Shown: positions 1-8,701, numbered from the stretch's first letter. The stretch is DNA of 9,242 nucleotides from a candidate division WOR-3 bacterium (GCA_965649215.1 CBFGJZ010000037.1:1-9242); one strand, 5' to 3'. Notes: generated from the letters alone by a model not told the origin. Program-made: numbers and translations.

Positions 1-114
1 CCAATATTCAGCGGTATTGCCACCGCCGAACTGAATTGTTTGTCCATACAGCGCCCAACTCCCGAAAACAATAAGTAAACTAAAGACAAAGAATAATTTA
101 TTTTTTACTGTCAT
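1..114 (-). CDS. 5' end of an exported protein, truncated by the window edge; possibly an outer-membrane protein
   Basis: Not in the ORF track. ATG at 112-114 overlaps the end of the upstream TlpA-like gene. The frame stays open to base 1 and reads MTVKNKLFFVFSLLIVFGSWALYGQTIQFGGGNTAEYW, with a basic N-terminus, hydrophobic core and likely cleavage before QT. Confidence 0.7.
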   Translation of the reverse strand, partial: MTVKNKLFFVFSLLIVFGSWALYGQTIQFGGGNTAEYW

Positions 115-625
115 CGCATTTTTTAGTTAATTCTCTAATCTTTTCCATAACTTTTTTCTCATCACCTGGCTTATAACCCTGATGGGTAAATATAATCTTC
201 TTGTTCTGGTCAACAATGAAAAAAGTGGGCATTACCTGCACATTATATGATTTACGCAGCTTATTTTCAGGATCTAAAACAATCTGATATTGCCATTTAT
301 GGCCTGCGGCAAAAGATTTAACTTCATCTTTGGACTTTGCTTTATCTTGGCTGATCGCTAAAAAACTAATACCCAATGAATCTATCTCTGGATAGTAAGG
401 TTTTAAGGCATCAAGTTCTTTAATACACATCTTACACCATAATGCCCAAAAACTCATTATCACGGGGCCCTTTTTGATGAGTGAATCAAGCACAACTAAC
501 TTACCATTAATATCATAAAGACTAAAACTGCTTGCATCTTTAAGAGTTATGGTCTTATCTTCTGCGTGCAGTCCTGCACTGATTAATAGTAATATTGATA
601 TTAAAGTTATAATTATCTTTTTCAT
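98..625 (-). CDS. TlpA/ResA-family thiol-disulfide oxidoreductase (redoxin), exported
   Basis: Motifs FSLYDING, SFWALWCKMCIKE (WCxxC), cis-Pro loop VMPTFFIVD and HQGY. Signal peptide MKKIIITLISILLLISAGLHA. ATG at 625, preceded by GGAG, is preferred over the track's start at 637. Confidence 0.9.
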   Translation of the reverse strand: MKKIIITLISILLLISAGLHAEDKTITLKDASSFSLYDINGKLVVLDSLIKKGPVIMSFWALWCKMCIKELDALKPYYPEIDSLGISFLAISQDKAKSKDEVKSFAAGHKWQYQIVLDPENKLRKSYNVQVMPTFFIVDQNKKIIFTHQGYKPGDEKKVMEKIRELTKKCDDSKK

Positions 626-626
626 A

Positions 627-1337
627 TCACTCCACAAACTTGGTTTTTATTGCTTGTAATATTTTTTTACTTTGTCGATCTTGCAGAAAAACAACTCCTC
701 GCATTTTAGGCGGGGCAATGTTGTGATTAAAATTAATAATTGTATCTAAACTATCTGGATAACTAACATTAATGGGTATCGTCGTGAGTTGTCTTACGAC
801 AAAATTAAAAGTACCCCCGAGATCACCTCGGATGCTATCCTCGCATATCGCAATAAAGGCGTAAACTGAATCGTGCCGAATGGTATCCGCAGCACCTATC
901 TTCAGGTGTAATTGACCGCTATTAACCGTCACACTACCCGTTAATTCTAAATTGTAACTTGGCACAATTGATTTGGCAACAATATAGTGCTGATTAAAAA
1001 CTGTATCATAAGCATTGGGATTATTCTCAAAAACAACATCTGTCCCATCAAAAACTACGGTTGGATAAGCTAAAATATTATAATAATTCATTCGTTCTTG
1101 AATCTGGGGTAGTTCAGGTTGTACAGAATGATTATAAGAGACAATCACTATTGAATCTCCATAATTAGTATGCAATTGAACAAGCGACTGCTCCGCAGCC
1201 GCACAAAAAGGTCAACCATCCTCAGTAAAAAACTCAACTAAAACAACGCGATTAGTTGGTGTCGGCAAGATGCGCGGTGCTTCCGAACAAAAAACAAAAA
1301 ACAGCGGTAATAACAATAAAAATCTCTCTATCTTCAT
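627..1337 (-). CDS. Omp28-like thioredoxin-fold selenoprotein, predicted lipoprotein, UxxC (U42-P-F-C), 236 aa
   Basis: The track ORF 627..1175 extends in frame through TGA at 1212-1214 to ATG 1337: MKIERFLLLLPLFFVFCSEAPRILPTPTNRVVLVEFFTEDG-U-PFCAAAEQSLVQLHTNYG. U occupies the first Cys position of a thioredoxin CxxC after the RVVLVEFFT strand. Later motifs YPTVVFDG and ICEDSI...FVVR. A SECIS-like hairpin follows the UGA. Confidence 0.88.
1184..1202 (-). promoter_or_regulatory. SECIS-like hairpin for UGA 1212-1214
   Basis: GCGGCUGC-GGA-GCAGUCGC: 8-bp stem (one G-U) with a G-containing loop, starting 9 nt after the UGA; GC-rich in an AT-rich gene. Confidence 0.75.
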
Positions 1338-1376: not shown

Positions 1377-2027
1377 TTACTTAACTTTAAGTTCGATGTC
1401 GTCAGCAAGGACCCTTGCTTCACATGAAGCACCTCAGCATCCATTGGTTGTATCCATAACAACAATTTGAAGCTTTTTTATATCCGAAACAGTAATTCCG
1501 GATAAGTGACTCAATTCTTCGCTAATCTTAAAGCTGTAATTGTACCAGCTGTCCATATGTGGTACATTTATTAAATGTAGCGTGCTAGTATTTTGCCAAG
1601 GGCAATGCGCTGTTTTAGAGACGATACGGGTTTCACCTAATAATTGGTAGCTGTCATTTAAATATCTTAAACAAATTGCCGCGGCTGCCCAATAAGAAGC
1701 ATTGGGGTTATATTCAATTGCTCGTAAATTTGCTTTCGCAGAAAACTGAAGATCACTTGTTGGAAAATCTATGGTCTGGTACAATTTAATGTGTCCGGCA
1801 TTGATCTTTTCTATAACTAACTCAAAATCATTATCTCCATCTAAGTTTTGATAGCGAGCAATCTCGTCTGAATAATTTAATCCGGAAGTATTCCTTTGCC
1901 ACCCGCTATTTAAGTCTTGCTCAAAATCACCATTAACAATCACTTTATTTATTATTGGCGATGAAGAATTACGATGGCAAGCACTAACAATAATAAAAAT
2001 TACTAATAGAAAAAAAGTTTTACGCAA
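1377..2027 (-). CDS. Lipoprotein with CBM4/9-like jelly-roll domain, selenoprotein with C-U198-GAS-C motif, 216 aa
   Basis: TTG start and lipoprotein signal MRKTFFLLVIFIIVSA-C. NGDFEQ...W opens the domain. The track stop TGA (1434-1436) is followed in frame by GASCEARVLADDIELKVK-TAA(1377), which matches the post-UGA sequence of the paralog (SGHCMARVLADDVAL). A SECIS-like hairpin is present. Confidence 0.87.
1404..1419 (-). promoter_or_regulatory. SECIS-like hairpin for UGA 1434-1436
   Basis: AGCAAG-GGUC-CUUGCU, starting 14 nt after the UGA, with possible lower pairing AUGU/ACAU. Spacing and loop are identical to the paralog's hairpin, with compensatory stem changes. Confidence 0.85.
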
Positions 2028-2036
2028 TTACCTTAA

Positions 2037-3950
2037 TTATTCCACTAATACTACTCGATAGCTAACTTTCTTGTGGTTATCAAGTACTAAATCAATGAAA
2101 TACACACCTGAATTTAGTTTCTGATTGTAGTCGTCTTTGCCATCCCACACTACAATATTTTCTTGATTATTTTTAGTATTTATAGTTTTAACACAATTAC
2201 CTAGTGTATTATAAATCCGCACTTTAATCTCTCGATGATTATCTGCTGAATATTGAAAATAAACCTGCTTACCAATTTTGATTGGATTAGGATAAATTCT
2301 AAATTGAGTTGAACTAATTTGGGTTTGGGGTGTTTCTTGAATGCCTGACAAGGTTATACCAAAAAATTTCATTATAGAATCAAGCAATATCTGTTTTGTC
2401 GAAGGTGCCGTACCATCTACCAAACTACCAAACTCAAACGAAACACCGATTGTCCGATAATTACCTGCATTATAAGCAACGCCACAATTATAACTATTAT
2501 TGCCGTCTTGGAATATCACATAACCAGTTGTCGCATTAATCCGATCCATATAGTTATTTTCTCCTGAATAATTGAAGTCCATTCCTGCAGTAAAAGTGTT
2601 ACTTACACCGATAACCGGTCCCATATCGCCGCTGCCATCGCTTACCCCAACTAAACCAAACATCGTATTAAAATTATGTCCGCCCACTTGTGGGTCATAA
2701 TACCAGACTTCGCCTCCTTCCATGTAAACTCGACCACCGCTGTTAAGATAATTAATTATCGCAGTTGCCTCAGCACCATTGGCAGCAATCCGATAATTAT
2801 TCGGGTAGACACCACAACAAACAAAGATCGACCGATAAATATCTAAGGTCGGTTCCGCAAGTAAATTAGTTGTAATCGCCCCAGTATAGCCATTAAAAGT
2901 TAAAAGATTGTGAATCGTTTGACCTGATGAAGGTGTGATATCTGGGTTCCAAACCAAATAATGATAAGAACCAACCACCAACGTGAAATTAAAGGTATCA
3001 GAAAAACTCCCTTCACTTGCAATTAATCTAAATACCGCATTGTGTCCCTGGGGACAAGAAGTGGAAACTGTAATTTGATAAGGATCCGCTGTATTCTCTT
3101 TAATGCTATCAATTAAAATACTTCCAAAATAGCCGCTATTATCGTTGATCGTTATATAGGGACTGCTACTCTGAAGGGTGGTGTTTAAATTGTTAAAATT
3201 AGCGCCACCAATATTGCGGAGAAGCGCGGTTAGATTAACGGTTTCACCTGGATCTAAACGCCCATTATTATTGCCACTTCCATCATAAACATTAGCTTTA
3301 ATAAAGCTCAAGTAATGATTGGTGCCATTATAATTTAAGGCCACATCATCGGCGAGGACCCTCGCCATACAATGACCACTTCAGCACCCATTGGTTGTAT
3401 CTAATAGAGCAATTTGAACTTTTCTAATTTGGGTTGGATTTACTCCTGGTAAATTAGCAAGTTCGTTATTTAAGTTAAAACTATAATTATACCAGTTATT
3501 CGGGTCCGTAACATTAATTAGATGAATCGTACTGGTACTTGTCCAAGGACTATGCGGGGTTTTGTAAGCAATACGGGTTTCGCCAAGTTGATTACCGTTT
3601 GCGTCCAGATATCTTAAACAAATCGCTGCGGCTGCCCAATAAGTTGCAGTTGGAGTATATTCAAGGGCATACAATTTTGCAGTAACCGAAAAATCCAAGT
3701 CAGTTGTGGGAATATTCACCGTTTGATATAATTTTGCATATATTTCATCATATTTTTTAACTCTTACCTCATAATCAGGATCAAGATCAAAATAAGTTTG
3801 ACGATCAATCGTATCTGAAGTATTCTGAAGTCCAAAAGCACTTGACCAACCAATATTCAAGGGTTGTTCAAAATCGCCATTTGTTAACAAACGTCCACCC
3901 AGACCAATACTTATTATTGATAAGAACAAGATCAAAAACTTTACCCTCAT
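2037..3950 (-). CDS. Secreted multidomain selenoprotein, 637 aa: CBM-like domain with C-U190-SGH-C, Ig-like domain, alpha/beta domain and C-terminal T9SS/FlgD-Ig-like sorting domain
   Basis: Track ORFs 3381..3965 and 2037..3368 are in one frame, separated only by TGA-AGT-GGT-CAT-TGT. ATG 3950 has AAGGAG 6 nt upstream and a signal peptide MRVKFLILFLSIISIGLG. Internal GNNNGRLDPGETVNL and YLNSGGRVYMEGGE segments. The C-terminus has IYPNP...IYNTLG...WDGKD...SGVYF. Confidence 0.87.
3339..3377 (-). promoter_or_regulatory. SECIS-like hairpin for UGA 3381-3383
   Basis: Upper stem GGCGAG-GGUC-CUCGCC (3366-3351) starts 14 nt after the UGA; possible lower stem GGUCAU/GUGGCC. Confidence 0.85.
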
Positions 3951-3967
3951 CGGGAACTCCTTCAATT

Positions 3968-5017
3968 TTATTTCAGTATTATTTTTCCTATTTTAGAGCC
4001 GGCGTCGCATTCAAACCGATAAAAATAAGTACCAGCACTCACCGAGTTAGAAAAATCACATTTCACCGATTCGTTATTACTACGAGTAACGCCTGATATT
4101 GTTTTCACATTTCGACCACTAATATCAAAGATTGTAATTTTATATTTACTTCCTTGGTTTAAAGCAAAAGTAAACCATACCTGATTATGAGCAGGATTTG
4201 GTGAAACTGAAATTGGATAATTATTAATTTTGCTTTGGTTGGGTTCTTCAACACCTGTTAAATTTAAATCTAGAAGTTTTATTTTTGCACCTTGATTAAT
4301 TCGTTTCGTAATATTCACATTCATTGGATCTTGAATCATCGCAATTATTTCAACTCGGCTTTCAACCCATCCCGATGCAATTGAAAACGGATAACTGACG
4401 GTTATGGAATCCTGGTAGTTTAAAGTTACTGGTGTACCAATATGGTCAGGCAGATAGTCGCGTGCGACATGATTATGCCACTGGTCACCATTAGGTGTTT
4501 GTCGATAAATACTATCTTCTGTAATTACAAATAATACATTGTGCTGTAAAGTCGTTACAGTATCACTGATAAAACGTACATAGATTGTACCTGTTCGAGT
4601 TGCTTGATTATAATCTCCCCAAATTCGTGCATTAATACGTGATTCCACTGCTGCCCGCTGTAATATTAAATTTTCCCAATTCGAATAACTACTACCTGCG
4701 CTATAGTCGCCATCTATCCACAACCATGGGGTATAATAAGTTGTACCCGGCATGGGTAGATAAAAAAATCGGTTGCGTGCTTTTAATAAATACATTCCAT
4801 AACTTGCATAACTAGAATTGACATGCATTTCCACCGCTGCCGTTGCTCGGGGATAATTATATGAGATTTGTGCCAGTACACTACTGGCCGTAACACAAGA
4901 AGCTCAGCCCTCTGAATATGCTTCTTCGCAAACCACTACGCGATCATATGCTTGAATTGAAGCAATGAGCCCCAATCCAACAATTATTAATAGGGTACTA
5001 AATAATTTATTAATCAT
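3968..5017 (-). CDS. Omp28-like thioredoxin-fold selenoprotein, UxxC (U38-A-S-C), with signal peptide and C-terminal T9SS-like sorting domain, 349 aa
   Basis: The track ORF 3968..4834 extends in frame through TGA at 4904-4906 to ATG 5017: MINKLFSTLLIIVGLGLIASIQAYDRVVVCEEAYSEG-U-ASCVTASSVLAQISYNYPRATAAVEMH. Motifs YTPWLWIDG and VITEDSI...HNHVARD. The C-terminus has VSPNP...IFDISGR...AGTYF...KI. GGGGG lies just upstream of the ATG. Confidence 0.88.
4868..4898 (-). promoter_or_regulatory. SECIS-like hairpin for UGA 4904-4906
   Basis: GCCAGUA-GUG-UACUGGC (4888-4872): perfect 7-bp stem with GU in the loop, starting 15 nt after the UGA; possible lower pairing UUGU/ACAA. Confidence 0.78.
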
Positions 5018-5041
5018 AATGCCCCCATTCTTTAATAGATT

Positions 5042-5134: not shown

Positions 5135-5228
5135 GGAGGCGGATGGGTGCTGGTGTGCCTGCTGGACTTCAAATCCAGGTGTTCTTCGAAAGGAGAACGG
5201 TAGGTTCGATTCCTACACGCCTCCGCCA
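5135..5228 (+). tRNA. selC: tRNA-Sec (anticodon UCA)
   Basis: 94 nt. Acceptor GGAGGCG(G)/(A)CGCCTCC-G-CCA; 6-bp D stem GGGTGC-TGGT-GTGCCT; anticodon arm CTGGA-CTTCAAA-TCCAG with TCA at 5169-5171; long variable arm GTTCTTC-GAAA-GGAGAAC; T arm GTAGG-TTCGATT-CCTAC. Adjacent to selB. Confidence 0.97.
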
Positions 5229-5231
5229 ATA

Positions 5232-7262
5232 TTAAATTTTATTTATAATTTTAAGCGAAAGCGTCCTCACATCTCCTTGTCGGACGGTAATCCCTTTAGA
5301 ATCAAAATAAATTAAAAGGGGTAGGACCGCTCGTCGACTGGCATTTAGTAAATCCCTAAATTGTGAAACTCTTATTTCTTTGTTGTGCTTTAAGAATTCA
5401 ATCAATTTTAACTCTGCTTCTTTAACATATTTGTGATGCAAAACTAAGCCCTCGCCAATATTAATTAAGATTTTATTGTCAAGCAAATACTGATAAGCTT
5501 TTTTAATATCATTCTCTTTGCCAATTATTTTCGATTTCACATCCTTAAAATCAAGCGGTTGAAACTTTTGTGCTAATATCAATTTTTCAATTCTTTCAAC
5601 ATAGTCGGCAATAGTTTTCTCTAAAGCCACCTTAAATTCACTAAGATATATTTTTTTATCTGCTGAAATTTTAATTACTCCNNNNNNNNNNNNNNNNNNN
5701 NNNNNNNNNNNNNNNNNNNNNNNNNNNNNNNNNNNNNNNNNNNNNNNNNNNNNNNNNNNNNNNNNNNNNNNNNNNNNNNNATCTTGTTGAAGTTCTTCAA
5801 TTGCCCAGTCAAAAAGTATTTTATCTAAAGCAGGGCTTGCCTTCTTTAATAATTCTAAAGCTGAAATACCAATACTACTCGGATTGTTTTTATGATAATC
5901 TTTTAGCTCTTCAATAATTTTTTGCTTTAATCTTTCTCTATTCTCAGTGTGATAGTATAGTTCTTTTTTTTCATCTAAACACAATACCTTACGCTGAGCA
6001 ATTAACTGTCCCAATAAATCTTTCACTTCATGCATCGGCAGATTAATATCTTTAGCAATTTCAATTGGTTTTTTAGCCAAGTCAAAATTTGTTCTTAAGT
6101 CTTCTTCAACCAAAACTATTGGTTCAGCCGTTTCGGTACGTGCTAAATGGCCTAATAATTCCTCATTATAGCCTTTGATTTTTATAGCTTTTGGTTCTAG
6201 AATAATGCCACCCCCTATGGTTGTTTGAGGCGAATAAGTTCTTATCACAAACCGGTCGTTGATGCCGCAAACCACAGATTCTTCTAAGCGGAATTGGACA
6301 ATCGCTTTATCCCCCGGATTTAATAATTTCTTATCCAGAAGCACAACTCGACCTAACACTTCTTTAGTACCGATATGAATTCGCAATCGTTCAAAGTTTC
6401 TTAGTGGCTTATCAATTCTACTTAACAGGTATAAGGAAGCATTTACAAACATGGATGGTTCATAAAAACCACCTTGCGCTAAAACATCACCTCTTTCAAT
6501 CTCGTCTTTTTCAACGCCCACTAAATTAATTGCCGCCCGAAATCCTGTACCGACTTCGTCTACTTGTTTGTTGTGTACTTCAATCCCTCGTACCTTAACT
6601 ATCTTCTTTTGAGGTAAAAGTTCCAATTCTGCTCCGACTTTGGTTTTCCCTGATAAAATAGTACCAGCCACCACGGTTCCAAACCCCTTAATGGTAAAAC
6701 AACGGTCTATCGGCATTCTAAAAATTCCTCGGTCAATTTTAGTTTCGGTCTCACCAATCAATTTATCTAATATGCGCTTTAGCTCATCAATACCTTCTAA
6801 AGTAACATTTGAAACCGAAACAATTGGCGCACTTTCCAGAAAAGAATTGCGCATTAACTCTTTAACATCATTCATAACAATCTTCAATCGTTCCTCTTTT
6901 ACTAAATCTTTCTTAGTAATCACTACGATTCCTTTTTTAATCGCCAATAGTTTTAAAATTTCTAAATGCTCATAGGTTTGGGGCATAATACCATCATCAG
7001 CCGCAATCACAAATATAACAATATCTACAGTCGAAGCACCGGCTACCATATGTCGAACAAATTTCTCGTGTCCAGGCACATCAATAATCGTAGCATTATC
7101 CCCATAAAAGACGAAACCTAAATCAGTGGTCATACCTCGTTCTTTTTCTTCTTTTAATCGGTCTGGATCCACACCCGTCAAAGCTTTAACTAAAGCGCTT
7201 TTACCATGGTCAATATGACCAGCCGTCCCAATAACAATGTGTCGTTTTATCGTATCAGTCAT
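5232..7262 (-). CDS. selB: Selenocysteine-specific translation elongation factor SelB (contains an assembly gap)
   Basis: [64 protein letters not shown], and a C-terminal winged-helix FRDLLNASR...PLLIYFD...RQGDVR. Located next to selA and selC. Confidence 0.97.
5682..5780. other. Assembly gap (99 N)
   Basis: Run of N inside selB. Confidence 0.99.
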
Positions 7263-7268
7263 ATTTTA

Positions 7269-8668
7269 CTACATTGTTTCTCGAAATGCTTGTAATATAA
7301 TCTCACCTTCGCCAGGAAGAATGGTACGAAAATCTAACATTAATGCGTTCGCTTGAACTCTACCAAAAATAGGTATTTTATATTGTCTCAATTTTCTTGC
7401 TAATTCTTGGCTGGGCATAATTTTTGGTTGGATCGAGACAACATAACTATCAAGTTCTTTGGTTGATAACGAACCGCCGCCAATTTCGGCNNNNNNNNNN
7501 NNNNNNNNNNNNNNNNNNNNNNNNNNNNNNNNNNNNNNNNNNNNNNNNNNNNNNNNNNNNNNNNNNNNNNNNNNNNNNNNNNNNNNGTCTGCAAGGTTGC
7601 TTCTAATACCGCATTTGTTAATTTATCACAACGCAAAGCCCGAGTGAGCGGGTGTTTCTTAATCTTTTCAATATATTCTTTTTTGCCAACAATAATTCCT
7701 GCTTGGGGTCCACCGATTAATTTATCGCCACTAAAACAGACAACATCAGCGCCTGTTTCGATACTTTCTCTAACCATTGGTTCTTTGGGTAAGCCGTATT
7801 TACTAAAATCAATCAACGCGCCACTTCCTAAGTCATCGACCACAGGAATATGATACTTTTTACCTAATGCGACTAGTTCAGACAATGGTACTTCTTTAGT
7901 AAAACCAGTTATTTGATAATTAGATTGGTGGATCCGAATAATTGCACCAGTTTCTGGCTCTAAACCTAATTCACTGTTGGATTTTTGATTAATTTTTCTT
8001 TCTCTCTTTTTGCCTTTATTTTTAATGTGTATCGCTTGTTCATAATCTTTAAGATGGGTCCGATTTGTTGTCCCAACTTCTTTCATAATACAACCTGATT
8101 GTGCCATAATTTCAGGAATCCGAAACGAACCGCCGATTTCAATCAACTGGCCACGAGAAACAATTACTTCTTTGCCTTGAGCTAATGCTCGCAAAACTAA
8201 TAAGGTTGCGCCAGCATTATTGTTAACTACAATACCTGCTTCGGCACCTGTTAAAATTTGGAGTAGTTTACTAATCTTTTTATAGCGGTCATCTCTTTTG
8301 CCTTCATCGTCAATTTGTAATCTTGAATATGCTTTAGCGACATCTGCCAATATCTCCGGGATACCACTGACAAAAGGTGCTCGACCAAGGCCGGTATGAA
8401 GCACAATGCCAAGGGCATTTATCGCATACTTAAAATACCTTTGAGTTAGATAATTCAATTCGCCAACTATCATCTGTCTTAAATTATCTGTATTTAACGA
8501 TTCGCCTTTAAGCAGTTTTTGTCTAAACTCATCAACCTTATCTCTAATAATCTTAACCAAGTATCTATGCTCTAATCTATCTTCAAACTCTTTAATTTCC
8601 TGCCAATTAAGAATTTTATCAACCGACGGAATATCTTTAAGTAATGATTTTTTATTAATCGTTGCCAT
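7269..8668 (-). CDS. selA: L-seryl-tRNA(Sec) selenium transferase SelA (the frame change falls inside an assembly gap)
   Basis: IPSVD, INALGIVLHTGLGRA, VVNNNAGA, VSRGQLIEIGGSFRIPEIM, EVGTTNRT, DLGSG and the PLP-lysine motif FSGDKLIGGPQAG. After the gap the correct frame is AEIGGGSLSTKEL...PIFGRVQANALMLDFRTILPGE...RETM-TAG(7269), 6 nt before the selB ATG. The track's end at 7400 is in the wrong frame. ATG 8668 is preferred as start. Confidence 0.96.
7491..7586. other. Assembly gap (96 N)
   Basis: Run of N inside selA. Confidence 0.99.
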
Positions 8669-8673
8669 AAACA

Positions 8674-8701
8674 ATTATAGATTAGAGTATTAAGATGTCA
8701 A
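8674..8701 (-). promoter_or_regulatory. sigma-70-type promoter of selAB, probably giving a leaderless mRNA
   Basis: TTGACA (8701-8696), 16 nt, TATAAT (8679-8674), then 5 nt to ATG 8668; no Shine-Dalgarno visible. Confidence 0.72.

Follow-up and report, generated by a model that had tools for sequence, protein, structure and literature searches.

As outlined in a recent survey (PMC13188914), the general model of the bacterial selenocysteine insertion sequence (SECIS) has an upper stem of 4-16 base pairs (bp) and a loop of 3-9 nucleotides (nt), with a G within the first two loop positions, outer loop bases that can pair, a UGA-to-loop distance of 16-37 nt, and a minimum free energy (MFE) of ≤ −7.5 kcal/mol, while typical elements are poorly conserved in sequence. 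A further general description gives a stem of 6-8 bp and a conserved G about 20 nt past UGA (PMC4605307), and for the fdhF element the fixed positions are given as U17, G23, and U24, with G23 and U24 in the loop, at a distance of 11 nt (PMC8659212). Here, we describe two hairpins that follow in-frame UGA codons in two paralogous genes, A and B, on a 9,242-nt contig of a candidate division WOR-3 bacterium (GCA_965649215.1 CBFGJZ010000037.1:1-9242; the window, meaning the whole stretch of DNA analyzed). We consider it highly probable that both are SECIS elements, directing SelB-dependent insertion of selenocysteine (Sec) at the UGA through an RNA structure overlaid on coding sequence.

Paired hairpins in two paralogous genes

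Both paralogs lie on the minus strand and share one layout, in which an in-frame TGA is followed after 14 nt by a 6-bp stem and a GGUC loop (Table 1). An earlier note on this DNA had proposed these two hairpins, with the same loop and the same distance from UGA in both genes and with two third-position G-C to A-U swaps between them, and re-reading the minus strand bears out the coordinates, the shared loop and distance, and the swaps alike. The four stem differences between A and B fall at stem positions 1 and 4 and at their partners, and all are third codon positions (ATG/GAA, GCG/GCA, CTC/CTT, and GCC/GCT), the first of them sitting in a non-synonymous codon (M versus E). Around the hairpin, the two proteins have in common ...DTTNGC-U-xxxC-x-ARVLADD. 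Overall, they carry the same residue at 106 of 208 aligned codons, with a nucleotide identity of 0.60, and since 17 of the 42 four-fold sites in codons for identical residues keep the same third base, the silent sites are almost saturated. The 1.64-Mb genome holds no further copy of the family.

The role of chance in this comparison was estimated by fixing the peptide and sampling codons from the window's own usage. The probability of a perfect 6-bp stem was 0.050 for MARVLA and 0.039 for EARVLA, that of a GGTC loop was 0.024, and stem and loop would arise jointly at about 0.001 per gene. One explanation invokes protein constraint only, the last beta-strand needing ARVLA and the two swaps having arisen by chance at saturated silent sites, and with two genes its chance of a perfect stem, a few percent, is non-negligible. 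Folding energy by itself is weak evidence: the bare 16-nt hairpins reach −9.5 kcal/mol (z −2.9) in A and −6.0 kcal/mol (z −2.3) in B, and the 48 nt after UGA reach −19.2 kcal/mol (z −2.8) and −11.1 kcal/mol, respectively. The further proposal of the earlier note, that selection on RNA structure overlies the ARVLA codons, thus finds modest evidence in the comparison of A with B by itself, and it is the family that carries the weight.

Covariation and codon choice across the family

Among 61 related genomes searched, 53 carry the domain, with up to 9 matches per genome and nearly all matches containing a single TGA. Three rows were set aside, two of them short partial matches that lack TGA and the third a match interrupted by TAG and TAA. 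Six-frame pieces scored with HMMER gave 137 homologues. The TGA is kept at the homologous site in 135 of the 137. In these 135 members, the hairpin peptide is AEVSA (63), AKVFA (49), ARVLA (16), or AEVFA (3), with ARVFA, AVVSA, AEVSV, and TEVSA seen once each, and the codons between Sec and the first Ala number 4 in 68 members, 5 in 55, and 6 in 12. The UGA-to-stem spacing is 11, 14, or 17 nt, with 11 nt the commonest (68/135) and 14 nt the spacing of the window genes; the UGA-to-loop distance is 17, 20, or 23 nt across the family and 20 nt (14 + 6) in both window genes. The only two members without TGA are L045 (G024:C3:201387-202350; ..AWAYADD), which has no GGUC hairpin, and L038 (G049:C1:2499912-2500875; ..SCPPPFDSVRVLADN), which has a partial, degraded stem with an AGUC loop and perhaps represents a recent loss of Sec.

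Anchoring on the hairpin gave a gap-free alignment (A1) of 134 stretches of 58 nt, one member cut by a contig end being dropped, and pairs were counted on its 133 distinct rows. RNAalifold on the 134 sequences returned exactly the 6-bp hairpin and nothing more, and over the distinct rows the stem was 98.9% paired. From the terminal pair toward the loop, the counts were GC 118, AU 4, GU 3, CG 1, and unpaired 7 at pair 22-37; GC 131, GU 1, and unpaired 1 at 23-36; CG 133 at 24-35; GC 113, AU 15, CG 4, UA 1, and unpaired 0 at 25-34, which joins two third codon positions; AU 66, GC 64, and GU 3 at 26-33; and AU 115, GC 16, GU 1, and unpaired 1 at 27-32. The outer loop bases (28-31) are paired in 100% of rows (GC 124, AU 9). 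The loop itself is GGUC in 125 of 134 sequences and AGUU in 9, and its central GU is invariant. In the AGUU members (e.g., L065, L091, and L106), the codons GAA-GTT stand in place of GAG-GTC, the outer bases switching together. None of 500 shuffles matched the observed paired percentage or covariation score, and slid partners were 33-59% paired versus 86% over the 9 pairs tested.

An extension of the stem was considered and rejected. Two added flanking pairs, 21-38 and 20-39, are paired in just 44% and 37% of rows, and a conserved lower helix is absent from the RNAalifold family model and shows no pattern among the 17 closest relatives, where the number paired at a given position ranges from 1 to 17 of 17. 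RNAfold does draw such a helix on paralog A (3336-3383, minus strand; GGUCAU/GUGGCC, −19.2 kcal/mol), and it is not kept in those 17 relatives.

The history of these pairs was followed on a FastTree tree of 128 rows, built from the domain minus the Sec motif and the hairpin peptide, which requires a minimum of 11 state changes at pair 25-34, 11 at 26-33, 5 at 27-32, and 4 at the loop pair. Independent contrasts, taken on supported branches, were compensatory in 8 of 8 cases at pair 25-34 (P = 0.0078). Contrasts in the same direction numbered 3.4 at pair 26-33 (n = 4), 3 at 27-32 (n = 5), and 3.6 at 22-37 (n = 5), with 0 opposite at each, and the loop pair gave 3 of 3 in the same direction. Covariation across homologues, which the earlier note had named as the check on its proposal, is clearly positive by RNAalifold, by pair counts against shuffles, by independent contrasts, and by the synonymous-codon null described next, and at the level of the family selection on RNA structure is supported.

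For this null, every residue was kept and synonymous codons were resampled from the rest of the same genes in 2000 draws. A perfect 6-bp stem, observed in 125 of 134 sequences, had a null mean of 14.6 and a maximum of 29 in the 2000 draws, and a GGUC or AGUU loop, observed in 134 of 134, had a null mean of 42 and a maximum of 63. Codon choice within the hairpin is correspondingly skewed: all 17 Arg codons are AGG (8% in the rest of these genes); all 65 Ser codons are TCN (AGY makes up 40% elsewhere); the first Ala is GCG in 113 of 134 (27% elsewhere); and Val is GTC in 125 of 134 (42% elsewhere). The amino acids follow the same pattern. When R, K, or E is combined with L, F, or S, all five combinations capable of pairing occur (R-L, R-F, K-F, E-F, and E-S), and none of the four unable to pair (R-S, K-L, K-S, and E-L) is found among the 135 members, the lone exception being V-S, which gives U-U. 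The same 16 nt have to serve pairing and coding at once, which makes silent sites co-vary and limits the tolerated residue pairs to those whose codons can pair; the two swaps in the window exemplify this double constraint.

These results bear directly on the explanation from protein constraint only. The peptide does lie in a structured strand, and the ADD that follows it is also kept in non-Sec homologues. The peptide itself, however, varies freely in those homologues: among 18 full-length non-Sec sequences (all matches reaching the profile end among the best 150 of 385 from the profile search reported below), the equivalent peptide reads ARAIV, AWAYA, TTYA, ATIYA, ADVYA, AELWA, and others, and A[RKE]V[LFS]A is kept in 2. 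Of the two non-Sec loci with DNA, one is without such a hairpin and one has a degraded version with an AGUC loop. With residues fixed, the null falls far below the observed number of perfect stems; pair 25-34 has not one mismatch and only compensatory contrasts; and the residue combinations seen are exactly those able to pair. We therefore hold protein constraint as the sole cause to be extremely improbable. Taken together, the codon and residue counts show that the hairpin, rather than the protein, dictates the codons and amino-acid pairs encoded there.

Selenocysteine machinery and the exported domain

The genes for tRNA-Sec (selC), selB, and selA lie on the same 9.2-kb contig as the paralogs, and the best solved relatives of selB are E. 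coli and Aquifex SelB. With selD on another contig, selA, selB, selC, and selD are all present in the genome, and selD itself contains an in-frame TGA. In this selD (L155, G000:C3:99665-103573), the TGA stands in ..KCAG-U-ASK.. and is followed by a hairpin with an A-GU-U loop, the variant also found in 9 family members. An Rfam scan of the window gave no family that fits the hairpins, the sole significant match being tRNA-Sec. In a sample of 101 genomes, evenly drawn from one phylum (family at E ≤ 1e-8, SelA at E ≤ 1e-20), the family was present in 21 of 30 SelA-positive genomes and in 0 of 71 SelA-negative ones; given that the genomes are akin and some are incomplete, this co-occurrence is an association and not a formal test.

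Since UGA is reassigned in some lineages outside this one, we also weighed whether near-cognate or reassigned decoding inserts Trp, Cys, or Gly at the codon while the hairpin stimulates read-through in a generic way. Such decoding fits poorly with a single UGA per domain at one fixed site, with the presence of all four sel genes, with a loop and spacing that fit the SelB-type SECIS model, and with the in-frame TGA and A-GU-U-loop hairpin of the same genome's selD. Moreover, another gene of the window has TGA (627-629) as its normal stop codon, which makes wholesale UGA reassignment unlikely. We judge this alternative to be very unlikely.

In the mechanism that we favor, a ribosome that reaches the in-frame UGA would have the 6-bp stem, capped by the G-GU-C loop, lying 14 nt downstream at its mRNA entrance. 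With Sec-tRNA(Sec) as cargo, SelB would bind the hairpin via its C-terminal winged-helix domains, most likely reading the central G and U of the loop, and would then deliver Sec. Once melted, the hairpin would be read as codons for A-[R/K/E]-V-[L/F/S]-A, which belongs to the final beta-strand of a beta-sandwich resembling carbohydrate-binding modules (CBMs). The data show a conserved UGA, a hairpin that co-varies, biased codon use, and Sec genes that lie nearby and co-occur with the family; from these we infer SelB binding, the actual insertion of Sec, and whatever Sec does in the protein.

Several observations weigh against SECIS function or temper the strength of the case. The terminal pair (22-37) is broken in 7 of 133 rows, and one row has U-U at the loop-proximal pair and one has A-C at pair 2. 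In the contrasts, P < 0.05 was reached by pair 25-34 only, and since the relatives are akin and many are paralogs, raw counts overstate independence. By energy, the 48-nt stretch of paralog B is no better than shuffles (z −0.28). The fdhF element has a bulged U (U17), whereas the 6-bp stem is continuous in all 134 sequences here. Finally, the SelA match changes frame across a run of N, and the integrity of selA is accordingly not judgeable in this assembly.

Paralog A runs from a signal peptide through a ~190-residue N-terminal beta-sandwich domain, which ends in ...DTTNGCU SGHC MARVLADD, to a long C-terminal region with a type IX secretion system (T9SS) sorting domain. Paralog B has a lipoprotein-like N-terminus (..VSAC) followed by the same domain, of which the 18 residues past Sec form the last strand. 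AlphaFold2 on 23 diverse members gave a confident beta-sandwich (predicted local distance difference test [pLDDT] 95.5, predicted template modeling score [pTM] 0.91), with residues 175-185, the hairpin-encoded residues included, as the last strand; on this model, termination at UGA would cost the domain an integral strand. In a Foldseek comparison, the predicted fold matched carbohydrate-binding modules of families 4, 11, 16, and 61, together with similar jelly-rolls, at template modeling (TM) scores of about 0.45-0.5, a likeness that indicates fold class and not function. A universal cysteine partner for Sec was sought and rejected. The cysteines vary by subfamily, with CU + UxxxC + HCPW marking the window type, STCWP the SGUG type, and xCGxA the CUGL type, and all of the common cysteine positions are missing from 5 of 130 sequences, so that no one Sec-Cys motif covers the family.

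Neither paralog gave a Pfam match or a credible NCBIfam match over residues 1-215, the sole region of paralog A recognized by these databases being the T9SS sorting tail, and the domain matches none of the Pfam/NCBIfam models for the 119 families and subfamilies catalogued in Table 1 of the 2026 survey (PMC13188914). Among the papers listed by a literature search on selenoproteins or SECIS elements with T9SS, WOR-3, or Stahlbacteria, none gave an account of the family. The protein family thus appears to be uncatalogued. In public records, its members are 'hypothetical proteins' of 177-208 amino acids from candidate division WOR-3, without Pfam domains and with gene calls ending at the TGA, and the named relatives are mostly metagenome-assembled genomes of Candidatus Stahlbacteria. 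A profile search of 1.84 billion representatives found 385 clusters at E ≤ 0.001, 258 at ≤ 1e-10, and 114 at ≤ 1e-30; among the best 150 of the 385 matches, most stop just short of Sec, at profile position about 165-169.

The truncated gene calls, the matches that end before Sec, and the working TGA stop at 627-629 would all suit a true stop at the UGA, with the hairpin placed between separate genes as a terminator, an attenuator, or a stability element. Set against this, 135 of 137 homologues have a frame that runs on past the TGA into a conserved peptide, the in-frame extension reaches up to several hundred residues without a new start, the window hairpins have no U-tract after them, the residues past the UGA complete the modeled fold, and in the 101-genome sample the family occurs only alongside SelA. 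Termination at the UGA is, in our assessment, a most improbable account of these genes.

In the window, the paralogs have a weak NF045500 relative on either side. The first, an Omp28-like T9SS gene, extends upstream through an in-frame TGA in ..SEG-U-ASC.. (UxxC) behind a signal peptide, with a 7-bp hairpin and GUG loop 15 nt later, and when read through it is a weak relative of the NF045500 'Omp28-related selenoprotein' model (43 bits versus a cut-off of 200). The other UxxC candidate selenoprotein also has a signal peptide and carries its in-frame TGA in ..EDG-U-PFC..; 9 nt past this TGA stands an 8-bp stem capped by a GGA loop. It has weak Omp28 and Omp28_seleno matches and ends at the TGA stop at 627-629, which overlaps the next gene. 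The last gene of the row encodes a TlpA/ResA-like thiol-disulfide oxidoreductase that is secreted and has WCKMC as its CxxC site; this protein may be a redox partner for the four exported Sec proteins.

Table 1. Positions of the predicted hairpins, the paralogs, and other features in the window
Feature	Position	Strand	Details
Paralog A	2037..3965	-	642 amino acids with read-through
In-frame TGA (predicted Sec195), paralog A	3381..3383	-	14 nt 5' of stem
Spacer, TGA to stem, paralog A	3380-3367	-	14 nt
Probable SECIS hairpin, paralog A	3351..3366	-	GGCGAG-GGUC-CUCGCC, codes (M)ARVLA; anatomy, −9.5 kcal/mol, covariation, RNAalifold
Stem 5' arm, paralog A	3366-3361	-	GGCGAG
Loop, paralog A	3360-3357	-	GGTC
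Stem 3' arm, paralog A	3356-3351	-	CTCGCC
Paralog B	1377..2027	-	216 amino acids with read-through
In-frame TGA (predicted Sec198), paralog B	1434..1436	-	14 nt 5' of stem
Spacer, TGA to stem, paralog B	1433-1420	-	14 nt
Probable SECIS hairpin, paralog B	1404..1419	-	AGCAAG-GGUC-CUUGCU, codes (E)ARVLA; anatomy, −6.0 kcal/mol, covariation, RNAalifold
Stem 5' arm, paralog B	1419-1414	-	AGCAAG
Loop, paralog B	1413-1410	-	GGTC
Stem 3' arm, paralog B	1409-1404	-	CTTGCT
tRNA-Sec (selC)	5135..5228	+	anticodon TCA; Rfam RF01852, 77.5 bits; ARAGORN agrees
selB	5232..7262	-	GTPase, beta-barrel, SelB winged-helix 2 and 3 domains
N run in selB	5682-5780		99 bases
selA	7272..8674	-	broken by N run, with frame change across the run
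N run in selA	7491-7586		96 bases
Omp28-like T9SS gene	3968-5020	-	in-frame TGA 4904-4906
Second UxxC candidate selenoprotein	627-1337	-	in-frame TGA 1212-1214
TlpA/ResA-like protein	98-637	-	

With slightly better than even confidence, we regard the paralogs as members of an undescribed, lineage-expanded exported selenoprotein family of WOR-3 / Stahlbacteria-type bacteria (up to 9 copies per genome, 385 clusters). Sec would be placed not in a thioredoxin fold but in the final loop of a CBM-like beta-sandwich that heads lipoproteins and T9SS cargo, and a near-invariant SECIS would hard-wire the final strand, its pairing coupling residues (R-L, K-F, and E-S). If so, the contig would be a cell-envelope selenoprotein island behind selA-selB-selC, made up of the paralogs, the two UxxC Omp28-like candidates, and the secreted TlpA/ResA-like CxxC protein, with a surface selenol chemistry yet to be studied. 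Roughly 400 clusters of truncated 'hypothetical proteins' would become full-length selenoproteins, for whose re-annotation the signature GCN-[AG][AG]G-GUC-[CU][CU]N-GCN, 11-17 nt past UGA, may serve. The family also offers an unusually clean natural example of mRNA structure constraining protein sequence, in which base pairing explains both the silent-site covariation and the 'allowed' residue pairs, and the switch from GGUC to AGUU lends comparative support to a SelB that needs the central GU over a closing pair. Such findings point to selenium use at the cell surface in an uncultured phylum, and the combination of a near-invariant hairpin with an unannotated, expanded family of exported beta-sandwich selenoproteins merits follow-up.

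Comparison with described SECIS elements and selenoproteins

As an element, the hairpin is an ordinary, textbook bacterial SECIS. In line with the general model, the window hairpins lie in the coding region right 3' of an in-frame UGA, their 6-bp stem and 4-nt loop are within limits, a G lies within the first two loop positions, the outer loop pair is 100% paired across the family, and the UGA-to-loop distance falls within the described range. The MFE limit is met by the 48-nt stretches (−19.2 and −11.1 kcal/mol), the bare B hairpin reaching only −6.0 kcal/mol. The geometry of the window also fits the summary description of a 6-8-bp stem with a G about 20 nt past UGA (PMC4605307). Other SECIS candidates of the same genome have different sequences, yet they too place G or GU in a small loop.

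A close likeness is to E. coli fdhF. In the K-12 gene, UGA is followed by 11 nt and GGUUGCA-GGUC-UGCACC, which agrees with the earlier note in placing GGUC at the apex. Like the fdhF minihelix (the 17-nt upper stem-loop), the hairpins described here are intragenic, stand directly after UGA, and combine a short stem with the same GGUC loop, and the 11-nt spacing of fdhF is the commonest in the family. Unlike fdhF, the loop is phased G|GUC rather than GGU|C, and the hairpin is nearly fixed across a whole protein family, without a conserved lower helix.

At the protein level, the Omp28-related selenoprotein (NF045500, 'GOS_C') and other predicted extracytoplasmic entries in Table 1 of PMC13188914 are, like the paralogs, exported selenoproteins of uncultured bacteria, but the paralogs have a CBM-like beta-sandwich in place of a thioredoxin-like UxxC domain. 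The departure from the general bacterial model lies in conservation: where typical SECIS elements share little sequence, this hairpin is near-invariant over 134 genes.

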